A stretch of 64,000 nucleotides of DNA. It comes from Candidatus Bathyarchaeota archaeon (lineage in GTDB: Archaea > Thermoproteota > Bathyarchaeia > 40CM-2-53-6). Of the stretch, positions 7,908 through 56,171 are shown piece after piece (positions within the stretch are counted from its first letter, which is position 1; each line of letters begins with the position of its first letter). Both the position numbers and the translations under genes were made by a program. The notes under the pieces were generated by a model. It did not search any database and had not been told where the DNA came from. It worked only from the letters and a program-made list of their open reading frames with translations. The stretch covers positions 145,863-209,862 of the forward strand of contig CAVWAQ010000002.1 in assembly GCA_963753065.1 (NCBI GenBank), given 5' to 3'.

Positions 7908-8009
7908 GCCGGGGTCGGTCAGATGTGATGCGACCACCGAAGGCCGAACGGTTCAGGCGGCAGCCTGCAGAGCTGCAGTATATGGGTTCGACTCCCATCC
8001 CCGGCTCCA
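7908..8009 (+). tRNA. tRNA-Cys (anticodon GCA) with a 26-nt intron between positions 9 and 10
   Basis: 5' exon GCCGGGG-TC, intron about 7917-7942 (GGTCAGATGTGATGCGACCACCGAAG), then D arm GCCG/AACGGTTC/AGGC. Anticodon arm is GCAGC-CTGCAGA-GCTGC, variable loop AGTAT and T arm ATGGG-TTCGACT-CCCAT. The acceptor 3' strand CCCCGGC gives a perfect 7-bp stem with the 5' strand, followed by discriminator U73 (the Cys identity element) and an encoded CCA. The spliced length would be 76 nt. A second copy of GCCGGGG lies 13 nt upstream (7895-7901). Confidence 0.6.
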
Positions 8010-9082: not shown

Positions 9083-9193
9083 TGGCGGGCGGGGCAGGAT
9101 TCGAACCCGCGACTCCAGGCTCCGGAGGCCTGTGCCCTATCCTGGCTAGGCGTCGGGAGAAACTACGCAGTCTATACCCGCCCATACCCGCCC
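9083..9193 (-). tRNA. tRNA-Arg (anticodon CCG) with a 23-nt intron between positions 9 and 10; the upper coordinate includes an upstream duplicate of the acceptor segment
   Basis: Read on the minus strand: acceptor GGGCGGG-TA (9183..9175), intron about 9174..9152 (TAGACTGCGTAGTTTCTCCCGAC), D arm GCCT/AGCCAGGATA/GGGC with A14, G18G19, A20 and A21. Anticodon arm is CAGGC-CTCCGGA-GCCTG and T arm GCGGG-TTCGAAT-CCTGC. The acceptor 3' strand CCCGCCC is followed by G73 and an encoded CCA ending at 9083. The spliced length would be 78 nt. A second GGGCGGGTAT copy lies immediately 5' (9193..9184). Confidence 0.65.
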
Positions 9194-43055: not shown

Positions 43056-43619
43056 GTGATAGTTTTGCCGCGAATGGTCAAGGCATTCGAATTGATTCGG
43101 GCGCGAACAGGCAGCGAAGATGCACTTATGCAACGCCTGATGAAGTTGCCCCAAGTGAAGGAAACTCACCTTCTTGCCGGCACTTGGGATGTCATGGCAA
43201 CGCTGGCTTTCGAAGAAGAACCAGTTGACCCGAGGGAACGAATGCTTCACGTTGTGACAGACAAGATACGAAAGATGCCTCTCGTCAGGGACACAAACAC
43301 GATTGTGCCGGCAATGTCCAAGATGCGAGAGATGCACTTGGTTCATCCAGAGCGACGAGCATACGCATTCGTCTTCATAAGTGCCAAGCTAGGCAAGAGC
43401 CAAGGCGTAATGAATCAGGTCATGAGGTACAGCGCAGTCATGGAATCGCACCTTCTGCTTGGAAAATCTGATGTCCTTGCAGTGCTGGAGTTCGAGAAGG
43501 GGATTGTCCCGTCGGTGCCTGAGAGAGTTGCTCGTATAGTGACGGAAGAGATTGCCAACATTAAGGACATCACTGGCACAGAAACGTTCTGCCCAATAAG
43601 ATCCTTGGTAAAGGACTAG
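43056..43619 (+). CDS. Tandem RAM/ACT-like (AsnC ligand-binding type) domain protein with no HTH
   Basis: Two repeats of the RAM pattern (MVKAFELIRARTGSEDALMQRLMKLPQVKETHLLAGTWDVMATLAFEE and YAFVFISAKLGKSQGVMNQVMRYSAVMESHLLLGKSDVLAVLEFE). Confidence 0.55.
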   Translation: MIVLPRMVKAFELIRARTGSEDALMQRLMKLPQVKETHLLAGTWDVMATLAFEEEPVDPRERMLHVVTDKIRKMPLVRDTNTIVPAMSKMREMHLVHPERRAYAFVFISAKLGKSQGVMNQVMRYSAVMESHLLLGKSDVLAVLEFEKGIVPSVPERVARIVTEEIANIKDITGTETFCPIRSLVKD

Positions 43620-43650: not shown

Positions 43651-44277
43651 TCAGCGCATTTTCTTTAGAAGACCGTGCAAACCTTCTTTTCGAAAGCCAA
43701 GTTCGCCGCTGTCGGTGAACGGTCGTTTTGAACTATTTGGGAAGCCGCCTCTAGGCGGATGGAGCCGGAAGCATGGCTCGATGCCCATTTCCCGCAATTT
43801 GGCAAATGGAACTTTGCCCGAGTAGAGCCCTGAGACAAGTTCACTCATCCCTGAAAGGTCCGATTTCTCCTTCACGAGCTTCGAAGTCAACCCCAGACCA
43901 CTAGGCGTTCTTGCTCTGTTTGATAGCAGTAGCTCGATGTCTTCTTTCCTAGCTTCAGCCCAAGTGACGTGATCTTTGATACGTTGGAGCATCCCTCTCA
44001 CAGACGGGTCATCTCGAAGCAGGACCGTACTGAATCGGCTCTTCATCCTCAGTGAGTTGAGCGTCAGCTCTTCAGGATGCTTGACGTTTGGTGTACCGTC
44101 GAGACGGATCGCAACAAGGTAGCGTTCAGCAGGCTCTTGTTCCCTTTCAACTGGTTTCTCGGCTGGTTTGGATGGAGGAACCTTCGGGGGTGCACGTCGT
44201 GGCCTTGCAGTCTTCCTTGCGGGTTTCTCGGCCTTCTTCTCTCGACGGGGATGTGCCGTCTTCGTTTTCTTGCTCAA
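43651..44277 (-). CDS. rpl30: Ribosomal protein uL30 with a Lys/Pro/Ala-rich N-terminal extension of about 50 aa
   Basis: Core ERYLVAIRLDGTPNVKHPEELTLNSLRMKSRFSTVLLRDDPSVRGMLQRIKDHVTWAE...FRLHPPRGGF. The N-terminus reads MSKKTKTAHPRREKKAEKPARKTARPRRAPPKVPPSKPAEKP. Confidence 0.8.
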   Translation of the reverse strand: MSKKTKTAHPRREKKAEKPARKTARPRRAPPKVPPSKPAEKPVEREQEPAERYLVAIRLDGTPNVKHPEELTLNSLRMKSRFSTVLLRDDPSVRGMLQRIKDHVTWAEARKEDIELLLSNRARTPSGLGLTSKLVKEKSDLSGMSELVSGLYSGKVPFAKLREMGIEPCFRLHPPRGGFPNSSKRPFTDSGELGFRKEGLHGLLKKMR

Positions 44278-44283
44278 TTATCT

Positions 44284-44880
44284 TCAGGCCTTCTTCTCAA
44301 AGGAGTGTGCAATCTTCTCGGTCACTTCGTCAAAATGCAGCGGGATCTCTTCGGGTTTGAGTTTGTTCTTCAAGTAAGTAGCGAAGCGTTTTTGATACAA
44401 GTCGGGTTTCTCAGAGAGCAGTTTGCCGTAGGCTGCTATGTGTTCTCCTCGTAGCCGTTCTTTGGCTGGAATCGTATCGTCGCCGTGGGGTATCTCCATT
44501 CCGGAGTCCACGGCTCCGCTCATTGCCGCATACAATCGTGATCCTGTGCTGACTGGTCTTGTCCCCACATCTAGTACTGCCTTCGCGATTCCCTTGCTCT
44601 TGGCTCTGTACCCGGCCAAGCGTCCTGTGAGATATGCGGCAGGAACGTTCCCTCCCGCTCCCTTCCAAGCGTATTTCTTCAACTCAGATGAGTGCGCAGA
44701 TGCGAGGACCAAGTCTCCAGTGGCTTTCGCCTCGACCACCTGTACTGTAACGTGCTTGTTAGCAGGCCGCACAACTAGTCTAGGTAGGCCGGATAAGACT
44801 AGGCGTTTTCTCTTACCGTAGTCGGTTCTTGCGTCTCTTCTTCTTCGGTACGACAGGTTGTATTGCGAGCCTTTGACCAT
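44284..44880 (-). CDS. rpl18: Ribosomal protein uL18 (L5e)
   Basis: YRRRRDARTDYGKRKRLVLSGLPRLVVRPANKHVTVQVV is the archaeal uL18 N-terminal signature. Confidence 0.85.
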   Translation of the reverse strand: MVKGSQYNLSYRRRRDARTDYGKRKRLVLSGLPRLVVRPANKHVTVQVVEAKATGDLVLASAHSSELKKYAWKGAGGNVPAAYLTGRLAGYRAKSKGIAKAVLDVGTRPVSTGSRLYAAMSGAVDSGMEIPHGDDTIPAKERLRGEHIAAYGKLLSEKPDLYQKRFATYLKNKLKPEEIPLHFDEVTEKIAHSFEKKA

Positions 44881-44904
44881 CTTCAGTCTACTTCCGTCAA
44901 TCTT

Positions 44905-45339
44905 CTAGTATACATATGCTAGTAGTCTGCCGCCGACCTTGCGTTCCTTTGCGTCCTTTTGTGAGATAACCTCGCCTGGGCTACTTACAATTAGCAGCCC
45001 TACTTCCTTTGAGGGCAGAAATCGTTTCTCCCAATCCTCGATGGCGGCGGACTTGACGGAATACCGAGGTTTCACGACAGCACAGCTGTTGATGCGGCCG
45101 AGGAGCTGGATTCTGAACTTGCCCGAGCGTCCATCATCGATGTATTCGAACTCTCCGATGTAACCGTTCTTCTGCATCACGCGCAGGACTTGACCCATCA
45201 GCTTGGACGCCGGCCACACAAGACATTCGCGCTTGTGTCTGCGTTCATTATTACTGATTGTGGAAAGTGCATTAGCCAGAGGATCTAACAGCGTCAATTC
45301 AAGTCTACTCCGTGCGGATTCTCCTCTTCGACCGGCCAC
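44905..45339 (-). CDS. rps8: Ribosomal protein uS8
   Basis: [16 protein letters not shown]...PASKL...[27 protein letters not shown]...GGRLLAYVY. Confidence 0.85.
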
Positions 45340-46048
45340 TCTGTCTGGCTGCTATTAGTCCTACCTTACGTCCCGGAGGCGTGTTCCTACCGACAGTCGT
45401 CGGCTTGCCAGCGTGCTTGTGACGCCCACCACCGTGCGGGTGTGAAGCTGCGACCATGGCTTGTCCCTTCGTAATGGGCCACAGTCGCCCTTTCGGCAAT
45501 AGCCAAGCCCTTCTTGTTCCAGCTTTCATGAACGGCTTCTCAGTGCGGCCTGCACCGCTCACGACACCGATCGTGGCTCTGCAGTTGTCCGGCACAGAAA
45601 CCGAGGTTCCTGAAGGCAACCGTAGTTCCGTTTTGCCTTGTCTGTGTGCGACGACCATCGCGTAGCTGCCTGAGGCTTTTGCCATCTTGCCGCCGTCCCC
45701 CGGTTCTCTCTCAATACTGGAGATCATTGTTCCTTCGGGTATCTTGCCTACTGGGAGTATGTTGCCGATTTCGGGTGGTGATTCGGTGCCCCGGGAAACT
45801 GTCTGGCTGACTAAGATCCCTTCTGGAGCGTTGAGGCAACACGACTTTCCGTCGGAGAACTGCACAAAGGCTAATGGTGACCCCCGGCCTGGGTCGTGAA
45901 TGATGTCGACAATTGTACCATCCACTCGTCCGGCACTGTCTGTGGGTGTCAATGGGGGATACGAGGCAGGAGCGATTCTCCGATAGATGTGGGCCCTGAA
46001 TACAGTGCCCCCTCGCCCTCTTCTCTGAACACGTATTCGTTTACCCAT
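45305..46048 (-). CDS. rpl2: Ribosomal protein uL2
   Basis: [14 protein letters not shown]... and the C-terminal ASHPHGGG motif. The ORF opens at 46135, but the likely start is MGKRIRV at 46048. Confidence 0.9.
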
Positions 46049-46356
46049 CCGTTTTTCCTCAAGACGACCTGTACCTTCTTGGCTGCGAGCCGTGGCTTGC
46101 TCCAGAGGAGCGGTAGCAGAGTCTTTCGATGTCACCCTTCGGACTCAAAATAAACGTTGCGGTCGATGGTTCTGTTGCATCTATGGGACACATCCTTTCC
46201 TGTTCTCGGTGTTGCGTGTCGGGACATGACCGTTCTTCTTACTGGCGTTTTGGATTAGGGTTAGCCACTTGTTTTCTCGGTTCTGTCAAGTCTGCGTCGG
46301 ATCAAGCAAACCTCAAGAAGTGTCAAAAAGCGTCGGTTTTGGTGGGTCTGTTAACT

Positions 46357-46800
46357 TCAGGTGATGTGACACCAGCAATCGCAATCAGTTGCGGCTCTCG
46401 GACAACCAAAGTGAAGGAATGCGTCGGCTAGACTTGGTCCAAGGCGTTCTGCTTGGGCTTGGTTATCTCTTTGTACTGCATTGCAGTGCTCAGTATGCTT
46501 ACGTTCCACTCCAATCTGGAAGTTAGTTTGACCCGGCCCGATTACAACAGTAGCCCTTCCGCTACCTTGGCCTACTCCAGTTGCCTTCATCGACTGGATA
46601 AGTTCGTTACGTTGAATCTTGAGTCCAGCATAGATTCCAACTACGACACAAAGACAACTGATAACTAGACCTAGAACAACTTGGGCAAAATACACAGAGA
46701 GAATTGTCGAACCCGCACTCCCAATGATCCCAACAAGAACAGCTACAAAGAATGCTTTCCAGTCTGTTGTTTGCTTTTGCTGGACACTTACTAGGCCCAT
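46357..46800 (-). CDS. Hypothetical small membrane protein
   Basis: Two to three hydrophobic helices. Its start abuts the putative IS end. Confidence 0.3.
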   Translation of the reverse strand: MGLVSVQQKQTTDWKAFFVAVLVGIIGSAGSTILSVYFAQVVLGLVISCLCVVVGIYAGLKIQRNELIQSMKATGVGQGSGRATVVIGPGQTNFQIGVERKHTEHCNAVQRDNQAQAERLGPSLADAFLHFGCPRAATDCDCWCHIT

Positions 46801-47540
46801 AAATAGGGATAATTCGCGGTTAGTATTTGCGGCTTGCGTTCTGAATGAGGGTCAACCACCTATCTTTGCCCTTAACTGCGATCCCTGCTTTCTCGCTAGG
46901 TGTCTGTCCGTCTAATCCCGTATGTGGTCTGATGTAGTTGTGGAAGATTTGCATACCCGTTAGGATCGGTGTGTCCTCTTTCTTGAGTGACCGCATGACC
47001 TTCTCTCGGTCTCTGATCTCGCCGTTGAGCCGTTCCATCTTGTTGTTATTGTGCTTGCCAGTGAGGGTGATTTGGCGTATGTGGACTGTGTTGTCCACAT
47101 TCTTGTTGGTTCGGAACTCTTTGAGCCATGCGTCGTGATATGACCGCAGGCCATCGGTGATGAGTACGCCGGGTTTCTTTCCTGCCCTATCCCTCGCCAT
47201 TTGGAACAAGTGCCTAGCATCGTGCGTATCTTTCGTATCTGCGACCTCTTGCGCTATCCAGAATCTTGTCTCGTCGTCCATCATGGCGAAAACGTATTTC
47301 ATGTTACCCTTGATCTTCACGTACAGTTCATCGGCTCGCCAAGTGTCGCTGACCTTGGGAGTTATCTTGTCTAGGTACTTCTGCATGAGGGCAGCATACC
47401 GCTTGATCCAGTTGTGGGCCGTAAGAAGCCGGTCGATCAAGATATCACATAAGGTAGGGCTCGGTTCTGGTTTCAACGATCACAAGCTTCTCCAATACCA
47501 GCTCTCATCATCGCCCCGCAATGCCTATGTTCGAATACAG
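46795..47540 (-). mobile_element. Putative IS6-family insertion sequence (about 0.75 kb) with imperfect terminal inverted repeats
   Basis: ATAGGGATAATTCGCGG near 46797-46815 pairs imperfectly with the reverse complement of CCCCGCAATGCCTATG near 47515-47535 (ATAGGcATTGCGGGG). The boundaries are approximate. Confidence 0.35.
46820..47476 (-). CDS. IS6-family DDE transposase
   Basis: WRADELYVKIKGNMKYVFAMMDDETR...VLITDGLRSYHDAW...RLNGEIRDREKVMRSLK...FHNYIRPH aligns to IS26/IS6-type transposases; 218 aa. Confidence 0.8.
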   Translation of the reverse strand: MKPEPSPTLCDILIDRLLTAHNWIKRYAALMQKYLDKITPKVSDTWRADELYVKIKGNMKYVFAMMDDETRFWIAQEVADTKDTHDARHLFQMARDRAGKKPGVLITDGLRSYHDAWLKEFRTNKNVDNTVHIRQITLTGKHNNNKMERLNGEIRDREKVMRSLKKEDTPILTGMQIFHNYIRPHTGLDGQTPSEKAGIAVKGKDRWLTLIQNASRKY

Positions 47541-49088: not shown

Positions 49089-51507
49089 CTACTTGGTAGT
49101 GGGTGCGGGTTTCTTTCGGCTTCGCCAGACCACTGCGCCTACCAGTGCAATGATGACTACGATTACGACGCCGAGCACCGTTGCGTCGGTAGACGTGGAC
49201 GAAACCGCGATGGGATCTGTCATGGTTTGTGGAAGCAATTGTCGACCGTTAAGCCAGTCATCTCTTCGTCGCTGGTTATTTCTTGGAATTTCGCATGGGT
49301 CGAGTTTGATTGTGCCATTTTGTATTGCCTGCACCAAGTCCGGGGCAGGGACGATACCAGTGAAGTTTGCCCGATACCATGTCGTGCCAAAGGCTGGTGG
49401 TGCGGGTGCTGCGAGTTGGTAGTTACTTGCGTTGTCGCTCATTGCTGGCGCGAAGTTGGTCCATGTGTTGCCACCATCTGTACTCTGCTGGATCATTACT
49501 AGCACGTTCGCCACCGGGGCGCGTCCGGTGATGGTGACGGAACCAGTGCCCAGCATTGGGCTACCAGCGTATGCGATCTGCGCTGGAGGAGGTCCGACTT
49601 TGACCGTATAGCCGGCTTGCTGCAGCAGAGTTGCTGCGGCGTTAACGTCGTAGCTGTCCGGTTTGAGGGTCGGGTCGTACCACTGTCCCCAGCCTGGACC
49701 AAGGAAGGTCGCCAATGGGTATGCGGATCCAGCCAGGAGTTGGCTTACGATCAGGTCCCTCGGGATGAGGTGACTGATTGCCTTGCGTATCAGGCGAGCG
49801 GCTTCGCCTGCCTGCGAGGGGTTACTCTTCCCAAGGGGCGTATCGACACCTGTACCAAAGACAGGATTGTTCATGTTGAATCCCATCTCCTGCCAGCCCA
49901 GCTCAGTTGCAGTTATGATGTTGATATTGGGAATCTGCTGTAGTGTTGGCTTGTCTTTGGCGAGTGCATAGTTGTAGTCCAACAGGTCCACTTGACCGTT
50001 CTTCAATGCTGCGATAGCGGCGTCCTTGCTGCCAATCCATTGCACTTTGTAGGTGTTGACCGTGAATTGGCCGAGAGCTTGCAGGCCAGTAGCGTTCCAG
50101 TATCCCGGATACTTCACTAGGGTTGCAATATTGTTCGTAAAGTCATAATCCTTAAGATAGTATGGACCAGCGCCGACGGGACCAACTGCAGTGTAGCTGC
50201 CTGAACCGCCGTACCGTGTCGCATCCCACTTGTACGTGTAGGGCGCGGAAGCGGTGCTGAACGGTGCGCTGTCCCAGCCAGCGAATGGAAAGCCTCTCCA
50301 TTATGTGCATAGGTAGCGGTGCGAACGCGGCGTAGACGGTGCTTGTGAAAGCATAGATTGCTGGTATATGGAACTGGAATTCATATTTGCTAATCGCTTT
50401 CCACGAACCATCAGTCTCAGGAACCTGCGGGCCGGTGTTGTCATCTATTCGGGAGGTTCCGTTGAGGAATGTGAATGTGACTTTGCTGCCAAGGTATTGC
50501 ACGTTGCTTCCCAGTCCGACCGATGCGGTGTTGGGGTTGGTCAACGCATATTGTGTGTAGACGAAGTCGTCTGCGGTGACCTCAACTCCGTCTTGGAATG
50601 TGACGCCTGGCTTTATGTCAACAGTCCATGTCAATCCGTCTGCACTTGGAGTGATCCTCTGTGCCGTGCCCATTATGTAGCTGGAAGTCCGCGGATCTGG
50701 TTCCTGTAGGTATCCTCCCATTATTTGGAACCATACGTAAGCTGCGTAGAAGCTGTTTGAGGAAGCAGTGTTTGCGGGATTCAGCGTGTTGCCCGGGAAG
50801 ATGTTGCTTCCTTCAGCCATAGTGAGACTGTCTGATCCTGCCCAGTGCTGAACGTCGGGGAAAGTAACCTCACTGTAGACGTTAGGGTCACCCCAAGCCG
50901 TAAATTTCGCGGCTCTCGGGACGGGGTCAATTGTCTCGTAGATATAGTTGTACGGGGCGTCGTTGAACACGATCTCTTGGAACTGATGAGTCAGTTGGAC
51001 CTGGGTCGCGGGATCTGTTGAGCTGTAGAGCTTGTCAAATATGGCGTTCACTTGAGGGTTATTGTAGTACGCGTAATTGCTCCCGGAGGGCGGGAGATAC
51101 GCGGGCCTTCCGTCAAAGTTGGCTCTGAAATCTGGCACGAATGCGGTATAACCCCATCCTATGAAGCCGATATCGTAGCCACCTTGGCTGAACGATGATC
51201 CCGGAGGAGCCGTCGCGGCGAACAGTCGATTCGAAAGCTGGTCGAAGTTTACGTAGAACAGTTTCGCATCGATTCCTAGTGAGATCATGTTGCTGGTGAT
51301 GATGCTGGAGTACTGTCTCCTAACGGTATTTCCGCCGGTCGGCGCGATTAGCGTCACCGAAAACAGACTTGGCCCCTGGGCGTATGCAGTTGTGAAAAGA
51401 CATGGCACTGCACTTGAAGCAATAACGTATATCAGGAGTGCCATAGCTATGCCTTGAACAATATACTTTGCTGATCTATCCGACATTTTCATATCACGTA
51501 AGCACAA
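49089..51507 (-). pseudogene. ABC transporter substrate-binding protein (family 5, oligopeptide/dipeptide/nickel type) with a C-terminal TM anchor; apparent frameshift near 50300-50315
   Basis: The N-terminal half (ORF 50152..51507) has a signal or TM segment and SBP_bac_5-like sequence that ends in out-of-frame residues. The second half (49089..50117) continues upstream in its own frame to a stop at about 50303 (…FAGWDSAPFSTASAPYTYKWDATRYGG…) and ends with the TM anchor VVIVVIIALVGAVVW. Confidence 0.65.
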
Positions 51508-51694
51508 GTTCTGGCTATCAACTCTATTTATGTCTTCTCAGGAAGATAGAGAGGAACTGGATTTCCACTCGCCTCTGCGCGAACCACAGGAAGGCGCTTT
51601 GTGTTGCCTGAGGGGAGGGCATTGAACCGATCCCTAATCGAACGCAAACGTTAATTGCGTAGTGGCCTGACCACTTCGAGTTTAGGGGTAGCAT

Positions 51695-52664
51695 TTGGCT
51701 AGCCTCATCCGTTACATCATTCGCCGCTTGCTCTTCATGATTCCCGGTATTCCTGGGTGTTGCGATCCTGACCTTTGGTGTCGGAAATGCGGCGGGAAAC
51801 CCGCTGGATCTCATTCGAGCAGGCCTAAAAAACCCGAGCCCCGCAGTGCTGGATGCGCTCAGGCACTACTACCACCTTGACCAGCCCCTTTGGGAGCGTT
51901 TCCTTCTCTGGCTTTGGGATCTGTTGCACGGGAATCTTGGCGTGTCGATTTCTGGAAGGCCTGTAGCTTCTTCGATTGGTGCATGGACTGTGACTACGTT
52001 GGAGCTGCAAATTCTAGCGCTGATACTTTCAGTCGCTATCGGAGTGCCAGTTGGTGTCTACTCCTCGAAGCATCAGTATTCGAAGACTGATTACGCGATC
52101 ACTTCAGTCGCGATTTTCGGGTATTCGATGCCAACTTTCTGGCTCGGGATTATATTGGTTATAATCTTCTCATTCAACTTGGGCTGGCTGCCTAGCAGCG
52201 GAGCGGTCAGCGTAAGCTACATGTGGTGGGGAACACCTCTTCTCGACTGGATTGCGCACCTGATTCTACCTACGCTCGTTCTAACGTATGTGAGCTTGGC
52301 TACTATAGTTCGTCTTGTGCGAGCCAATATGCTTGAGGTAATGCGACAAGACTACATCCTGGCAGCTCGTGCGAGTGGCCTCAGTGAACGTACGGTTACC
52401 TACCGCTATGCGTTGAGAAATGCGATTAGTCCAGTGGTGACAATTATCGGACTTGGATTTGGCGCCGCGCTCGGTGGCGCGCCTGCACTTGAAACCACTT
52501 TCTCGTGGCCGGGATTGGGTTACGCGTTCACCCAGGCGGCCCTCACCTTGGACATTCCTCTTGTTGAGGGAATAACAATCGTCATCACGGTGATGGTCTT
52601 GATCGCTAACTTGATCACGGACTTGTCATATGCTTTGCTTGATCCACGCGTAACGATAGATTGA
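51695..52664 (+). pseudogene. ABC peptide transporter permease (DppB/OppB-like) with an apparent frameshift near 51745-51760
   Basis: N-terminus MASLIRYIIRRLLFMIPGI (frame of ORF 51695). The continuation FLGVAILTFGVGNAAGNPLDLIRAGLKNPSPAVLDALRHYY... is in the frame of ORF 51846..52664. Confidence 0.65.
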
Positions 52665-52668
52665 GGAA

Positions 52669-53565
52669 TTGTGTTTGTCTGAGAAACAGCGTACCCGAGG
52701 AGCTAGTACGTGGTCCCTTGCGTGGCGTCGGTTCAGGAGAAACAAGTCCGCTCTTGTCGGGAGTGCAATTGTTGTCTTCTTCATTGCAATTGGCATATTC
52801 GGACCTTATGTTGCCCCTTACCCGGCTCGAAGTTACCTGTCATTATACACGGGAGATGCCGGGTCTCCTCCGTCATTTAAGCACCCATTCGGAGTTGAAG
52901 ACTCGGGCATAGATGTCTTCAGCGAGACTATTCATGGGACTAGGAACGATCTATACGTCGGGCTTGCGGCCACTCTTGTTACGATGATTATCGGAATCGC
53001 GGTGGGCGCTGTCGCTGGATACTTCAAGGGCGTTGTATCGGATATATTGCTCGGGGTAATACAAGTCTTCTTCGTCATTCCGGTTCTACTGCTCATTCTC
53101 CTATTCGCGAGAGTGTTCTCCGTGTTAGTTTTCAAGGGCTTGGGTCTGACGCTGATTGTCCTCATATTGGCGTTTTTCGGATGGTCTCAAATTGCTTTCA
53201 TCGTCAGGGGAGAAACGCTGAGACTGAAGGAGATGGAGTTTATTCAAGCGGCCCGCTCTCTGGGAGCAGGCTCCTTCAGGCTTCTCTTCCGCCACATTGT
53301 TCCGAACATCTTGTCACCAGTCATCGTGATTGCAACGCTTGACATCGCAGGTTTCATCTTGACAGAAGTGGTTGTGAGTTTCCTAGGCTTTGGCGACCCG
53401 AACACCTCAACGTGGGGTCTGCTTCTAAACGAGGGTTTCTCTTTCGTCAGGACTACTTGGTGGGTTTCGCTGTTTCCTGGTTTGGCCGTAGTGATATGTG
53501 TTTTAGGGTTCAACCTGATGGGCGATGGATTATCGGACGCGCTAAACCCTAGGCTGCGTGAATGA
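52669..53565 (+). CDS. ABC peptide transporter permease (DppC/OppC-like)
   Basis: N-terminal WRRFRRNKSALVGSAIVVFFI, an EAA-like loop (IQAARSLGAGSFRLLFRHIVPNI) and six TM helices. Confidence 0.85.
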   Translation: MCLSEKQRTRGASTWSLAWRRFRRNKSALVGSAIVVFFIAIGIFGPYVAPYPARSYLSLYTGDAGSPPSFKHPFGVEDSGIDVFSETIHGTRNDLYVGLAATLVTMIIGIAVGAVAGYFKGVVSDILLGVIQVFFVIPVLLLILLFARVFSVLVFKGLGLTLIVLILAFFGWSQIAFIVRGETLRLKEMEFIQAARSLGAGSFRLLFRHIVPNILSPVIVIATLDIAGFILTEVVVSFLGFGDPNTSTWGLLLNEGFSFVRTTWWVSLFPGLAVVICVLGFNLMGDGLSDALNPRLRE

Positions 53566-54568
53566 GAGGGGCCACCTGTTGACAGAAAGACTCCTGGAAA
53601 TCTCCGATTTGCGCACCTACTTCTTCACGGAAGCAGGCGTGGTAAAGGCATTGGATGGAATGTCCCTGGAAGTCAACAAAGGACAGACAGTCGGCCTTGT
53701 GGGGGAATCCGGGTCAGGCAAGTCTGTAACTGCTCAATCTGTGCTGCGTATAGTTCCCCGGCCGGGACGCATAGTGGATGGATCAGTCAAATTCGAAGGC
53801 GAAGAGCTCCTTTCGAAAACGGAAAATGAAATGCGAAAACTTAGAGGCCCCAAGATGGCTATCGTATTCCAAGATCCAACTACGTCACTTAACCCTATCT
53901 ATACTGTGGAGAAACAGCTCACGGATATTTTGACACTCCACCGAGACCTGGGGAAATCCGAAGCTTCCGAGAGAGCATTGTACCTTCTGGAACTCGTTGG
54001 AATTCAGGAACCAGAGAAAAGACTCAGGACTTACCCTCATGAATTAAGCGGCGGCATGAAGCAGCGTGTTGCAATAGCGAGGGCTTTGTCATGCGAACCG
54101 ACACTCCTCTTCGCTGATGAACCAACAACGAACTTGGACGTCACTGTCCAGGCTCAAGTCCTAGAATTGCTTAAGAAGTTGCAGAAGGAGCTGAAAATGA
54201 CTATGGTTATGATTACCCATGACATGGGGATCATAGCCGATATGGCCGAACATGTCACCGTCCTCTACGCAGGCAAAGTCTTGGAGGTCGCCGACACGGT
54301 CACACTATTCAAGTCGCCGAAGCATCCATACACCGAAGCACTTCTCAAAGCTGTCCCCAGTGTAAAGCAGACGCGTACGCTTGAGGTCATACCCGGCAAC
54401 ATCCCGAACTTGATAGAACTTCCTACTGGCTGCGTGTTCCACCCCCGATGCAAGTACGCCAAGGATGTTTGCGTGAAAGAGGAACCTTCGTTGGAGAAAG
54501 CAGAAGATGGACACTACGCGGCATGTCACCTATGGCGGGAATTGAAGCTTGAAGGCAGAAGTGGCTGA
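53558..54568 (+). CDS. ABC transporter ATP-binding protein (DppD/OppD-like)
   Basis: Walker A GESGSGKS, signature LSGGMKQR, Walker B LLFADEPTTNLD and the oligopeptide C-terminal domain. Confidence 0.9.
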   Translation: MNERGHLLTERLLEISDLRTYFFTEAGVVKALDGMSLEVNKGQTVGLVGESGSGKSVTAQSVLRIVPRPGRIVDGSVKFEGEELLSKTENEMRKLRGPKMAIVFQDPTTSLNPIYTVEKQLTDILTLHRDLGKSEASERALYLLELVGIQEPEKRLRTYPHELSGGMKQRVAIARALSCEPTLLFADEPTTNLDVTVQAQVLELLKKLQKELKMTMVMITHDMGIIADMAEHVTVLYAGKVLEVADTVTLFKSPKHPYTEALLKAVPSVKQTRTLEVIPGNIPNLIELPTGCVFHPRCKYAKDVCVKEEPSLEKAEDGHYAACHLWRELKLEGRSG

Positions 54569-55586
54569 GATGCAGGCATCGACGGATCCGAAAGGGCTGA
54601 TCCTCCAAGTGAGGTCCCTCGTTAAGCATTTCGATGTCATTGAACGTGGTATCCTTCGAAAGAAAAAAGCGGGTGAAGTACACGCTGTTGACGACGTCTC
54701 GTTCCATATCCTCAAAGGCGAGACACTCGGACTTGTTGGAGAAAGTGGATGTGGCAAGACAACCGTTGGCAAGGTAATCCTTTACCTTGAAGAGCCAAGT
54801 TCAGGTTCAGTGATATTCGAGGGCGAGGATGTTTTCGAAGTCTTCGCAAATGGGAATCAAAACGAATCAAAAAGGGTTAGACGCAAAATGCAGATGGTGT
54901 TTCAGAACCCTTACAATTCTCTGGATCCACGTATGACTGTCTACGATATCATAAGCGAAGCATTTACGATCCATAAGAATCTACCGAAAAACGAATGGAA
55001 AAGTCGCGTCTACGAGCTTCTGAGGATGGTGAATTTAGAAGAGTACCACGCAGAGCGATATCCACACGAGTTCAGTGGCGGTCAGAGGCAGAGAATCGCA
55101 ATCGCGCGTGCTCTGGCAGTTGATCCGAAGTTCGTCATTCTAGATGAACCAGTTTCGTCGTTGGATGTTTCGATCAGGGCTCAAATCCTGAATTTACTTA
55201 TAGATCTGCAACAAAAGAAACATCTGTCTTATCTTTACATTTCGCACGACTTGAGTTCAGTTCGTCAGATCAGTGAGCGCGTTGCGGTCATGTACCTTGG
55301 GGAAATTGTTGAGTTGGCAGGCTCAGAGCAGTTGTTCGACAAACCCTTGCATCCATACACTCAGGCTTTGATTTCCGCGGTTCCAGCCCCGGACGTTGAT
55401 CACAAGACAACTCGAATTATCCTTCCAGGCGAGGTACCTAGCCCGATCAATCCTCCGCAAGCGTGCAGATTCCATCCGCGGTGCCCACACGCCACGGACA
55501 TATGCAGACAGGTTGCCCCAAGACTTGAGGACAAGTTGGTCAAGGAGCATTTCGTTGCTTGCCACCATGCGGATAAGTTCATCTAG
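54549..55586 (+). CDS. ABC transporter ATP-binding protein (DppF/OppF-like)
   Basis: Walker A GESGCGKTT, signature FSGGQRQR, Walker B ILDEPVSSLD and the oligopeptide C-terminal domain. Confidence 0.9.
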   Translation: MKAEVAEMQASTDPKGLILQVRSLVKHFDVIERGILRKKKAGEVHAVDDVSFHILKGETLGLVGESGCGKTTVGKVILYLEEPSSGSVIFEGEDVFEVFANGNQNESKRVRRKMQMVFQNPYNSLDPRMTVYDIISEAFTIHKNLPKNEWKSRVYELLRMVNLEEYHAERYPHEFSGGQRQRIAIARALAVDPKFVILDEPVSSLDVSIRAQILNLLIDLQQKKHLSYLYISHDLSSVRQISERVAVMYLGEIVELAGSEQLFDKPLHPYTQALISAVPAPDVDHKTTRIILPGEVPSPINPPQACRFHPRCPHATDICRQVAPRLEDKLVKEHFVACHHADKFI

Positions 55587-55595
55587 GGTGCAGTC

Positions 55596-56171
55596 TTGCG
55601 AGTTAGAAAAGGACAAGCGACAGGAATCGTTCTTTTTACTCTGGCCCTCATTTTCCTGTTTGTCGGAACAGTGATGCCATATTACAAGTCGCCGCAGCGA
55701 ATTCAAGGAAGTGGGCCTAAGGTGGAGTTCACTTCTTCCCTTCCGTATTGGATTGACACTTACTTCATACCACCAATTGACGTAGGAACCCCAATTAGCC
55801 TAAGCGTGTCCAGTGATCGAACGGGAGCCACGACAGTCTTATTGGCGTCCTATGATCAGGATCGTCAAACGATAATAGGGCCACCATTGGTTAACGTCGT
55901 TTTTGCGTCAGCCGAGAAGGGTCTCGTCGTCTTCACAAATGCAGGTAGATCTGGACCATACCTCCTGACGATTACTAGTTACAATAGCTCATACACATTC
56001 TATCTAAGTTCTGTTTGGTCACCTTTCTATGCGCTCAGAAGCCTGACCATCTATGGTCTCGGGCTTCTCCCACTTGGGGCAGCCACCTTGTACTATGATA
56101 GGATAGTCGAAGGGCGTGAGAAAATGGCTGAGGAGGCTCTGAGGGGGATCAAGAAAACTCGACAACCTTGA
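55596..56171 (+). CDS. Hypothetical membrane-anchored or secreted protein downstream of the ABC operon
   Basis: N-terminal TM (IVLFTLALIFLFVGTV) and a Ser/Thr-rich beta domain. Confidence 0.35.
   Translation: MRVRKGQATGIVLFTLALIFLFVGTVMPYYKSPQRIQGSGPKVEFTSSLPYWIDTYFIPPIDVGTPISLSVSSDRTGATTVLLASYDQDRQTIIGPPLVNVVFASAEKGLVVFTNAGRSGPYLLTITSYNSSYTFYLSSVWSPFYALRSLTIYGLGLLPLGAATLYYDRIVEGREKMAEEALRGIKKTRQP

Follow-up and report, generated by a model that had tools for sequence, protein, structure and literature searches.

The order of the genes in the S10-spc supercluster is a textbook example of gene-order conservation across Bacteria and Archaea, and it is usually ascribed to co-regulated, stoichiometric expression and to co-translational assembly. 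The canonical archaeal arrangement is L3-L4-L23-L2-S19-L22-S3-L29-S17-L14-L24-S4e-L5-S14-S8-L6-L32e-L19e-L18-S5-L30-L15-SecY. According to a 2023 survey, a 14-gene core of this cluster is contiguous in all of the non-Asgard Archaea covered there, with one thaumarchaeotal exception (PMC10833476). Known split clusters are those of Heimdallarchaeote bin6, which is divided into three segments, of the thaumarchaeote N. aquarius AQ6f, and of Micrarchaeum ARMAN-2; the Bathyarchaeia are not mentioned in that survey (Tirumalai et al. 2023, PMC10833476). Described here is a 64,000-nucleotide stretch of DNA from a member of the Bathyarchaeia (contig CAVWAQ010000002.1, positions 145,863 to 209,862), hereafter referred to as the window, in which the genes for the ribosomal proteins uL2, uS8, uL18, and uL30 form an operon of their own. 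This operon is very probably one half of an interleaved, clade-wide split, the other half being a main cluster from which these four genes are missing. A full-text search of the literature, which is no proof of absence, returned no description of such an arrangement in Bathyarchaeia, and the closest account was that of PMC10833476.

The coordinates of the features discussed below are provided in Table 1. Four minus-strand open reading frames (ORFs) spanning 43651-46135 were identified with Pfam and NCBIfam as uL2, uS8, uL18, and uL30, all of them full length. Each of the proteins scores above the NCBIfam curated cutoff of one archaeal equivalog model, and uL30 falls under that of the other archaeal model, TIGR01309 (124.7 versus 150 bits). 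The genes are contiguous from 43651 to 46048, in agreement with an earlier sequence-only reading of the window. That reading had also suspected an overlap between uL2 and uS8. With the start codons set by homology and by the gene calls in other assemblies, however, a 35-nucleotide overlap arises only if the longest-ORF GTG start of uS8 is chosen; the homology-supported TTG codon at 45297 leaves a 7-nucleotide spacer, and uS8 is likewise called as a protein of 130 amino acids in three related loci (L001, L019, and L023).

The genes that intervene in the canonical order, namely uS19 through uS14, uL6/eL32/eL19, and uS5, are all missing from the 64 kb. A tblastn search of the window with all 35 proteins of a complete, canonical Methanosuratincola L3...L13 cluster matched only the four genes and no other S10, spc, or alpha ribosomal protein gene; as had been read from the sequence alone, there is neither uL3-uL4-uL23 upstream nor uL15-SecY downstream. 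The composition is even over the operon region and its junctions. Upstream of the operon lie a promoter-like motif, the remnant of an IS6-like insertion sequence (IS), a candidate small RNA (sRNA) gene, and the genes of an Opp-type ABC transporter, and downstream is a convergent AsnC-like gene.

The same uL2-uS8-uL18-uL30 order was observed in 10 further independent assemblies (L001-L006, L019, L020, L023, and L025), which were drawn from four sources: NCBI, ENA, JGI, and Logan. Lineages with this four-gene operon are referred to here as type A. In L001-L006, L019, and L020 (from Logan, NCBI, and ENA), the operon is followed by the convergent AsnC-like gene and by genes encoding a zincin-like protease and a LarA-like protein, and uL18 displays 72-100% identity to that of the window. 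The operon is also present in the distant loci L023 and L025, where uL18 is 59% and 56% identical, respectively, and where the upstream Opp-type ABC transporter genes are again in common. The uL2 proteins of L002-L006 are 83-98% identical to that of the window. Ratios of nonsynonymous to synonymous substitution rates (dN/dS) of 0.02-0.10 over all four genes, and of 0.05-0.09 for uL2 alone, indicate strong purifying selection; synonymous sites (dS) are saturated in the comparisons with L006 and L019.

Metagenome-assembled genomes of Bathyarchaeia from peat and soil projects (SPRUCE and Microflora Danica, for example) account for all of the closest homologues of uL18 and for the five closest species representatives, and the placement among Thaumarchaeota given by the sequence-only reading was therefore wrong. 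Canonical spacing is found in the outgroups, which include Methanosuratincola, Methanosarcinaceae, Thermoplasmata, a nanoarchaeote, and the Bathyarchaeia L021, L026, and L029. The four-gene arrangement is an old inherited feature of a broad peat and soil group of Bathyarchaeia and is not an assembly error. Judged from sequence divergence, the split predates both the divergence of uL18 to 56% identity and the saturation of synonymous sites. The sharing of the exact arrangement by close relatives, which the earlier reading had taken as a point against its own proposal, does away with a recent accident and not with the phenomenon itself.

One further feature sets the type-A operon apart. The first ~55 codons of uL30 (44110-44277, minus strand) encode an N-terminal extension of ~50 amino acids that is rich in lysine, arginine, and proline. 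The extension occurs in all type-A lineages and in none of the canonical Bathyarchaeia or Methanosuratincola. It was considered as a possible leftover of a deleted uS5 or other neighboring gene, and this was rejected after comparison with uS5 and with further ribosomal proteins had revealed no significant resemblance.

The sequence-only reading had proposed that the S10-spc supercluster is fragmented in this lineage and that the remaining genes be located. A main cluster without the four genes was, in fact, found on peat and soil contigs, compositionally matching ones among them, such that the proposed fragmentation holds, albeit in an older and more orderly form than had been supposed. A metagenome scan anchored on uL4 yielded 80 loci, which were annotated using L021, a canonical Bathyarchaeon, as the source of the protein queries for tblastn. 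Approximately 60 of the 80 are canonical (L3-L4-L23-L2-S19...). A complement set, located on peat and soil contigs with 47-54% guanine plus cytosine, displays the order (L3)-L4-L23-S19-(~1 kb)-L22-S3-L29-Rpp29-S17-L14-L24-S4e-L5-S14-L6-L32e-L19e-S5, which is the canonical order minus uL2, uS8, and uL18, stopping at uS5 without uL30.

The individual contigs bear this out. L044, L048, L053, and L062 run L4-L23-S19-...-L5-S14-L6-L32e-L19e, with L048 and L053 reaching one gene further, to S5. The junctions of L048 are tight, with 78 nucleotides between L23 and S19, ~10 between S14 and L6, and 1 between L19e and S5, and its cluster stops after S5 at a convergent gene. In L053, the 1,750-nucleotide tail past S5 gave no ribosomal protein matches by tblastn with the L021 proteins. 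The order in L110, as assigned with Pfam, is Archease-SPOUT-L3-L4-L23-S19-x-x-L22-S3-L29-Rpp29-S17-L14-L24-S4e-L5-S14-L6-L32e, and L111 and L112 follow the same order, ending sooner, at S4e and L5, respectively. The absence of L2 and that of S8 are fully coupled among the loci long enough to judge: five lack both, eight have both, and none is mixed. Leftovers of uL2, uS8, uL18, or uL30 were not detected in the complement loci by permissive tblastn.

The composition of several complement contigs is in keeping with that of the window, whose tetranucleotide signature was computed with the operon excluded. Correlations with the window are 0.94-0.96 for the known clade members, 0.92-0.94 for the complement loci L054 and L042, and 0.915-0.92 for L110-L112, as compared with 0.86 or less for every canonical-type locus. 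Given the jigsaw-like exact fit, the matching composition, and the essentiality of the four proteins, there is a strong case from sequence that both loci reside in the same genomes. Across the large type-A clade, these essential proteins very probably come from the four-gene operon alone.

Some complement-type contigs depart further from the canonical order. In several of them, including L044 and L048, uL3 is not located upstream of uL4, and L045, L049, and L052 carry L4-L23-S19 only, followed by ~2.6-9 kb without ribosomal protein genes. Contigs of these two kinds argue that fragmentation is ongoing within type A. An insertion of ~1 kb separates uS19 from uL22 in L029-L032, L035, L036, L048, L053, and L110-L112; it contains two small minus-strand genes in L029 and L110-L112, one of which is helix-turn-helix-like in L029. 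This gap is common to canonical and complement clusters of Bathyarchaeia and thus ties the latter to this part of the class. The complement cluster was reached via the metagenome scan and then through the candidate P0347. A uS5 query from a canonical Bathyarchaeon failed to recognize the uS5 of the lineage, the protein being too conserved (7,734 matches, the best 120 of which were all ~70% identical). The candidates P0148 (uS5), P0312, and P0360 (both uL4) turned out to be canonical, and P0250 (uL4) belonged to the second arrangement, type B.

In type B (L017, L018, and L024 at ~5.8-10.6 kb, and L027 at 8.5-13.2 kb), the order is eS19-L3-L4-L23-L24-S4e-S8-L18, after which unrelated genes follow. 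This subset is again colinear with the canonical order and differs from that of type A, with the junction between S8 and L18 being common to both. In a neighbor-joining tree of uS8 plus uL18, type A is monophyletic with 89-91% bootstrap support, and the node uniting types A and B receives 50-82%.

Whether an ancestral supercluster was first duplicated and then pared down by reciprocal gene loss, of which types A and B would be two different outcomes, is in our estimation an evenly balanced question. That explanation is favored because an interleaved, complementary partition in which order and strand are kept is the expected residue of deletions on two copies; inversions are disfavored because they keep blocks contiguous. 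In the proposed scheme, an ancestor would have come to possess two copies of the supercluster, either through segmental duplication or through unequal recombination between the chromosome copies of a polyploid cell. Redundant genes would then have disappeared from either copy, with gene order and strand retained in both. The type B sister clade, which has the S8/L18 junction in common, would have resolved the same redundancy differently. A more specific version, in which the duplication occurred in the ancestor of a major clade of Bathyarchaeia, was fractionated differently in types A and B, and was possibly enabled by polyploidy, is put forward tentatively, with the balance tipped slightly against it.

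Several observations weigh against a split of this origin or against the pairing of the two loci on which it is built. Among the sequences obtained, no single closed genome or assembly joins the operon and the complement cluster. The L19e/S5 junction is unseen in the subclade of the window, as L110 breaks off past L32e, 23 codons into the gene that follows; both this junction and the cluster end after S5 are known from L048 and L053 alone, two contigs that are farther removed in composition (r = 0.67-0.73). A lineage with redundant cluster copies, the predicted intermediate, was not found among the loci examined, nor were remnants of flanking genes seen by which the minor locus could be recognized as once having been a full copy. 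The complement cluster of type B was not recovered among the loci obtained. Finally, support for the node uniting types A and B is no more than moderate, its bootstrap value falling to 50% once L027 is included.

The missing intermediate would be accounted for if there had been no duplication and the four genes, or uS8-uL18 first, had been excised singly from one cluster and inserted side by side. Such serial relocation would be in line with the piecemeal breaks seen in other Bathyarchaeia (L3-L4-L23-L2-S19 alone, insertions between L23 and L2, and L4-L23-S19 alone) and, in certain type-A lineages, with the departure of L3 from the main cluster. It demands, however, that four moves land in the canonical order, on the same strand, and with spacers of 6-24 nucleotides, when the chance of the canonical order alone is 1/24, and it requires scarless junctions of 1-10 nucleotides at S14/L6 and L19e/S5 as well. 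The type B subset is also colinear, and relocating an essential gene calls for a transient duplicate in any event. We consider serial relocation unlikely.

It is also conceivable that the second copy of the cluster was horizontally acquired from another archaeon before reciprocal loss set in. This xenologous variant of the duplication predicts the same colinear, complementary pattern, and the origin of the second copy is not distinguished by the present data. The nearest relatives of the four proteins, however, are those of other Bathyarchaeia and of Methanomethylicia, as expected for vertical descent, and type A lies beside other Bathyarchaeia on the uS8 plus uL18 tree. A foreign source for the second copy is accordingly judged quite improbable.

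The sequence-only reading had raised the possibility of an IS-mediated rearrangement, by which a recent rearrangement or deletion due to IS6 would have reduced the cluster of this genome to its present form. Directly upstream of the operon there are indeed an IS6-like gene and a terminal repeat of the IS6 type, the L003 contig breaks exactly at the terminal repeat, and the orientation of the upstream Opp block in the window is opposite to that seen in the relatives. Nevertheless, the identical operon occurs without an IS in L006, L019, L020, L023, and L025, and this refutes the proposal. The remnant lies upstream of the conserved promoter-like motif, between it and the sRNA candidate, at neither a gene junction nor a junction of the rearrangement, and the arrangement long predates the insertion. 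The IS6-like element, which inserted later between the sRNA candidate and the putative operon promoter and is decaying, played no role in the split, and its having caused the reduced cluster can be given next to no credence.

Equally implausible is an assembly chimera, which the sequence-only reading had also entertained, or a surplus set of paralogues in a genome that retains a full canonical cluster. Only the prior expectation of a near-universal canonical cluster speaks for either. The chimera is refuted by the agreement of 11 independent assemblies, the window included, in gene order and flanking genes. In addition, composition is even over the junctions, the promoter-like motif is invariant, the composition-matched main clusters lack L2 and S8, and purifying selection on each of the four genes is strong.

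Table 1. Features of the uL2-uS8-uL18-uL30 region, in window coordinates (aa, amino acids; nt, nucleotides)
Feature	Position	Strand	Description
uL2	45305..46048	minus	247 aa; ATG at 46048; first gene of the operon; PRK09612, 300 bits (cutoff 265); Pfam Ribosomal_L2_C
uS8	44905..45297	minus	130 aa; TTG start at 45297, 7 nt past the uL2 stop; PRK04034, 192.8 bits (cutoff 126)
uL18	44284..44880	minus	198 aa; ATG at 44880, 24 nt past the uS8 stop; PRK08569, 251 bits (cutoff 143)
uL30	43651..44277	minus	208 aa; TTG at 44277, 6 nt past the uL18 stop; PRK06049, 136.3 bits (cutoff 130)
AsnC/Lrp-like gene	43056..43619	plus	Pfam AsnC_trans_reg; convergent with uL30; conserved downstream border; syntenic in L001-L006, L019, L020
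Putative BRE/TATA promoter	46144..46163	minus	ACCGCAACGTTTATTTTGAG; motif start ~115 nt ahead of the uL2 ATG
IS6-type terminal inverted repeat	46168-46186		GGTTCTGTTGCATCTATGG; single copy in the window
Secondary insertion, ~1.29 kb	46168..47455	minus	DDE transposase ORF, 147-aa ORF, and one IS6-type terminal inverted repeat
IS6-like DDE transposase ORF	46820-47476	minus	~770 nt upstream of uL2; PF13610 (DDE_Tnp_IS240), 65.8 bits (cutoff 27)
C/D-box sRNA candidate, 62 nt	47456..47517	minus	original upstream neighbor of the operon

The region directly ahead of uL2 contains a motif that resembles a transcription factor B recognition element (BRE) followed by a TATA box. A 17-nucleotide version of it, ACC[GA]CAA[CTG]GTTTAT[TG]TT, is invariant in all eight of the aligned type-A loci, L023 and L025 included, and the promoter-like motif occurs once in the window. 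From its sequence and position, it would appear to be the operon's own promoter. Between the motif and the uL2 start codon at 46048 is a conserved leader with a GAGG element 10-13 nucleotides before the ATG. A structure for the leader RNA is unsupported by covariation (RNAalifold term of +0.31, with a compensatory change in 1 of 20 pairs).

The sequence-only reading had reported an IS6 element 0.8 kb upstream of the operon; the transposase gene is indeed there, and what surrounds it is a one-ended remnant, its left end missing, instead of an intact element. Against the NCBIfam model transpos_IS6, the transposase scores 84.8 bits, under the cutoff of 125, with profile positions 1-42 unmatched, such that ~42 N-terminal residues are missing. 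The annotated start of its reading frame, which overlaps the sRNA candidate, is probably spurious. The terminal repeat begins with GGTTCTGTTGCA, which we take to resemble the ends of IS6-family elements. No second terminal repeat was found near the other end with up to three mismatches allowed, and there is no second IS copy in the window. Between the transposase stop codon and the repeat lies an ORF that may encode a membrane-like protein of 147 amino acids (46357-46800, minus strand) with a weak, sub-cutoff TauE match; it is missing from the element in L005.

Loci L006, L019, and L020 are without the insertion, and in these the sRNA candidate lies ~35 nucleotides from the promoter motif. In L005, a homologous right end and a frameshifted transposase gene are found within a 2.6-kb insert. 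The start of the L003 contig coincides precisely with the boundary of the repeat, suggesting a multi-copy IS in that genome. Farther upstream, the Opp-type ABC transporter block extends from 49089 to 56144, with the gene for the binding protein on the minus strand and the permease and ATPase genes on the plus strand. The block is inverted with respect to the uL2 operon in the window and is co-oriented with it in L005, L019, L023, and L025, a local inversion beside the IS remnant; no second IS copy was found at the far end of the inversion.

The sRNA candidate has the layout GGGGCG-ATGATGA-GAGCTGGTATTG-GAGA-loop-TGTGATCG-nTGAAACCAGAA-CCGA-GCCCC, in which both the C box, ATGATGA, and a 5-base pair terminal stem, GGGGC/GCCCC, are present. 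At the D-box position, the window and its close relatives have CCGA, and L023 has the canonical CTGA. Counterparts are located at 5994-6055 in L005, 1407-1468 in L006, 6337-6398 in L019, 2243-2304 in L023, and 2433-2494 in L025. Differences from the window amount to 3-4 of the 62 positions in L005, L006, L019, and L020, and to 11-12 of the 62 in L023 and L025; both guide regions are kept even where uL18 is only 56-59% identical. In Rfam, the candidate has no match above the gathering score (15.5 bits for sR44 versus 45, and 17.7 bits for SNORD115 versus 39). The sub-threshold matches at its coordinates are all to CD-box families, and these are the sole matches there. The D' guide might pair with the 530-loop region of 16S ribosomal RNA; ribosomal RNA genes were found neither in the window nor in any fetched locus.

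Elsewhere in the window, two Rfam matches to transfer RNA score above the gathering threshold, at 7942-7998 on the plus strand and at 9094-9151 on the minus strand, with GCA and CCG in the respective anticodon loops. Both cover only positions 9/10-63 of the model and are unreported by ARAGORN, possibly owing to introns or to acceptor stems of an unusual kind.

That a deep and ecologically abundant archaeal clade has long kept an interleaved, two-operon version of the supercluster indicates that contiguity is not strictly required. Type A represents a natural experiment on ribosomal protein stoichiometry without a single operon, and the conserved putative promoter and leader of the minor operon are candidates for new regulation. 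The comb-like pattern is a rare footprint of an essential operon being dismantled. There is also a practical consequence. Because uL2, uS8, and uL18 sit on a different contig from the remaining markers, methods that rely on marker synteny, such as scaffold trees built from 16 ribosomal proteins and some checks for contamination or chimerism, would split or under-represent these Bathyarchaeia.

The window element can be compared with the IS6 family of the IS26/IS257 type, given its IS240/IS6-like DDE transposase gene; it differs in having one terminal repeat, an N-terminally short transposase that scores under the NCBIfam cutoff, and an extra ORF. The uL30 extension of type A recalls the basic N-terminal extension of eukaryotic uL30. 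Relative to the canonical S10-spc cluster, as seen in L008, L021, L026, and L029, type A has the same genes in the same relative order, on the same strand, and with the same tight, operon-like spacing. Unlike the canonical cluster, the genes are divided in an interleaved fashion over two loci, and L15 and SecY are at neither as far as can be seen.

Both type A and the previously reported splits are departures from a near-universal contiguity of the core in Archaea. Whereas those splits consist of contiguous blocks (for example, uL22..uS14 / uS8-uL6 / L32e..uL15; PMC10833476), type A joins single genes from four separate positions, and its comb-like pair of loci has been kept over a deep clade. 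Type A is a new form of a known kind of event, namely cluster fragmentation.

Reciprocal gene loss following whole-genome duplication has been described for yeast and other genomes. If duplication and loss did take place here, they would constitute a prokaryotic, operon-scale analogue of the fractionation that follows genome duplication, and in the most rearrangement-resistant genes known. The present case would differ in that it would concern a single prokaryotic segment of ~12 kb that holds the most conserved operon set, and in that the duplicated intermediate is unobserved. As in the genomes that have undergone such duplication, two colinear regions carry complementary subsets of an ancestral gene order, and sister lineages, here types A and B, would have resolved the redundancy differently.

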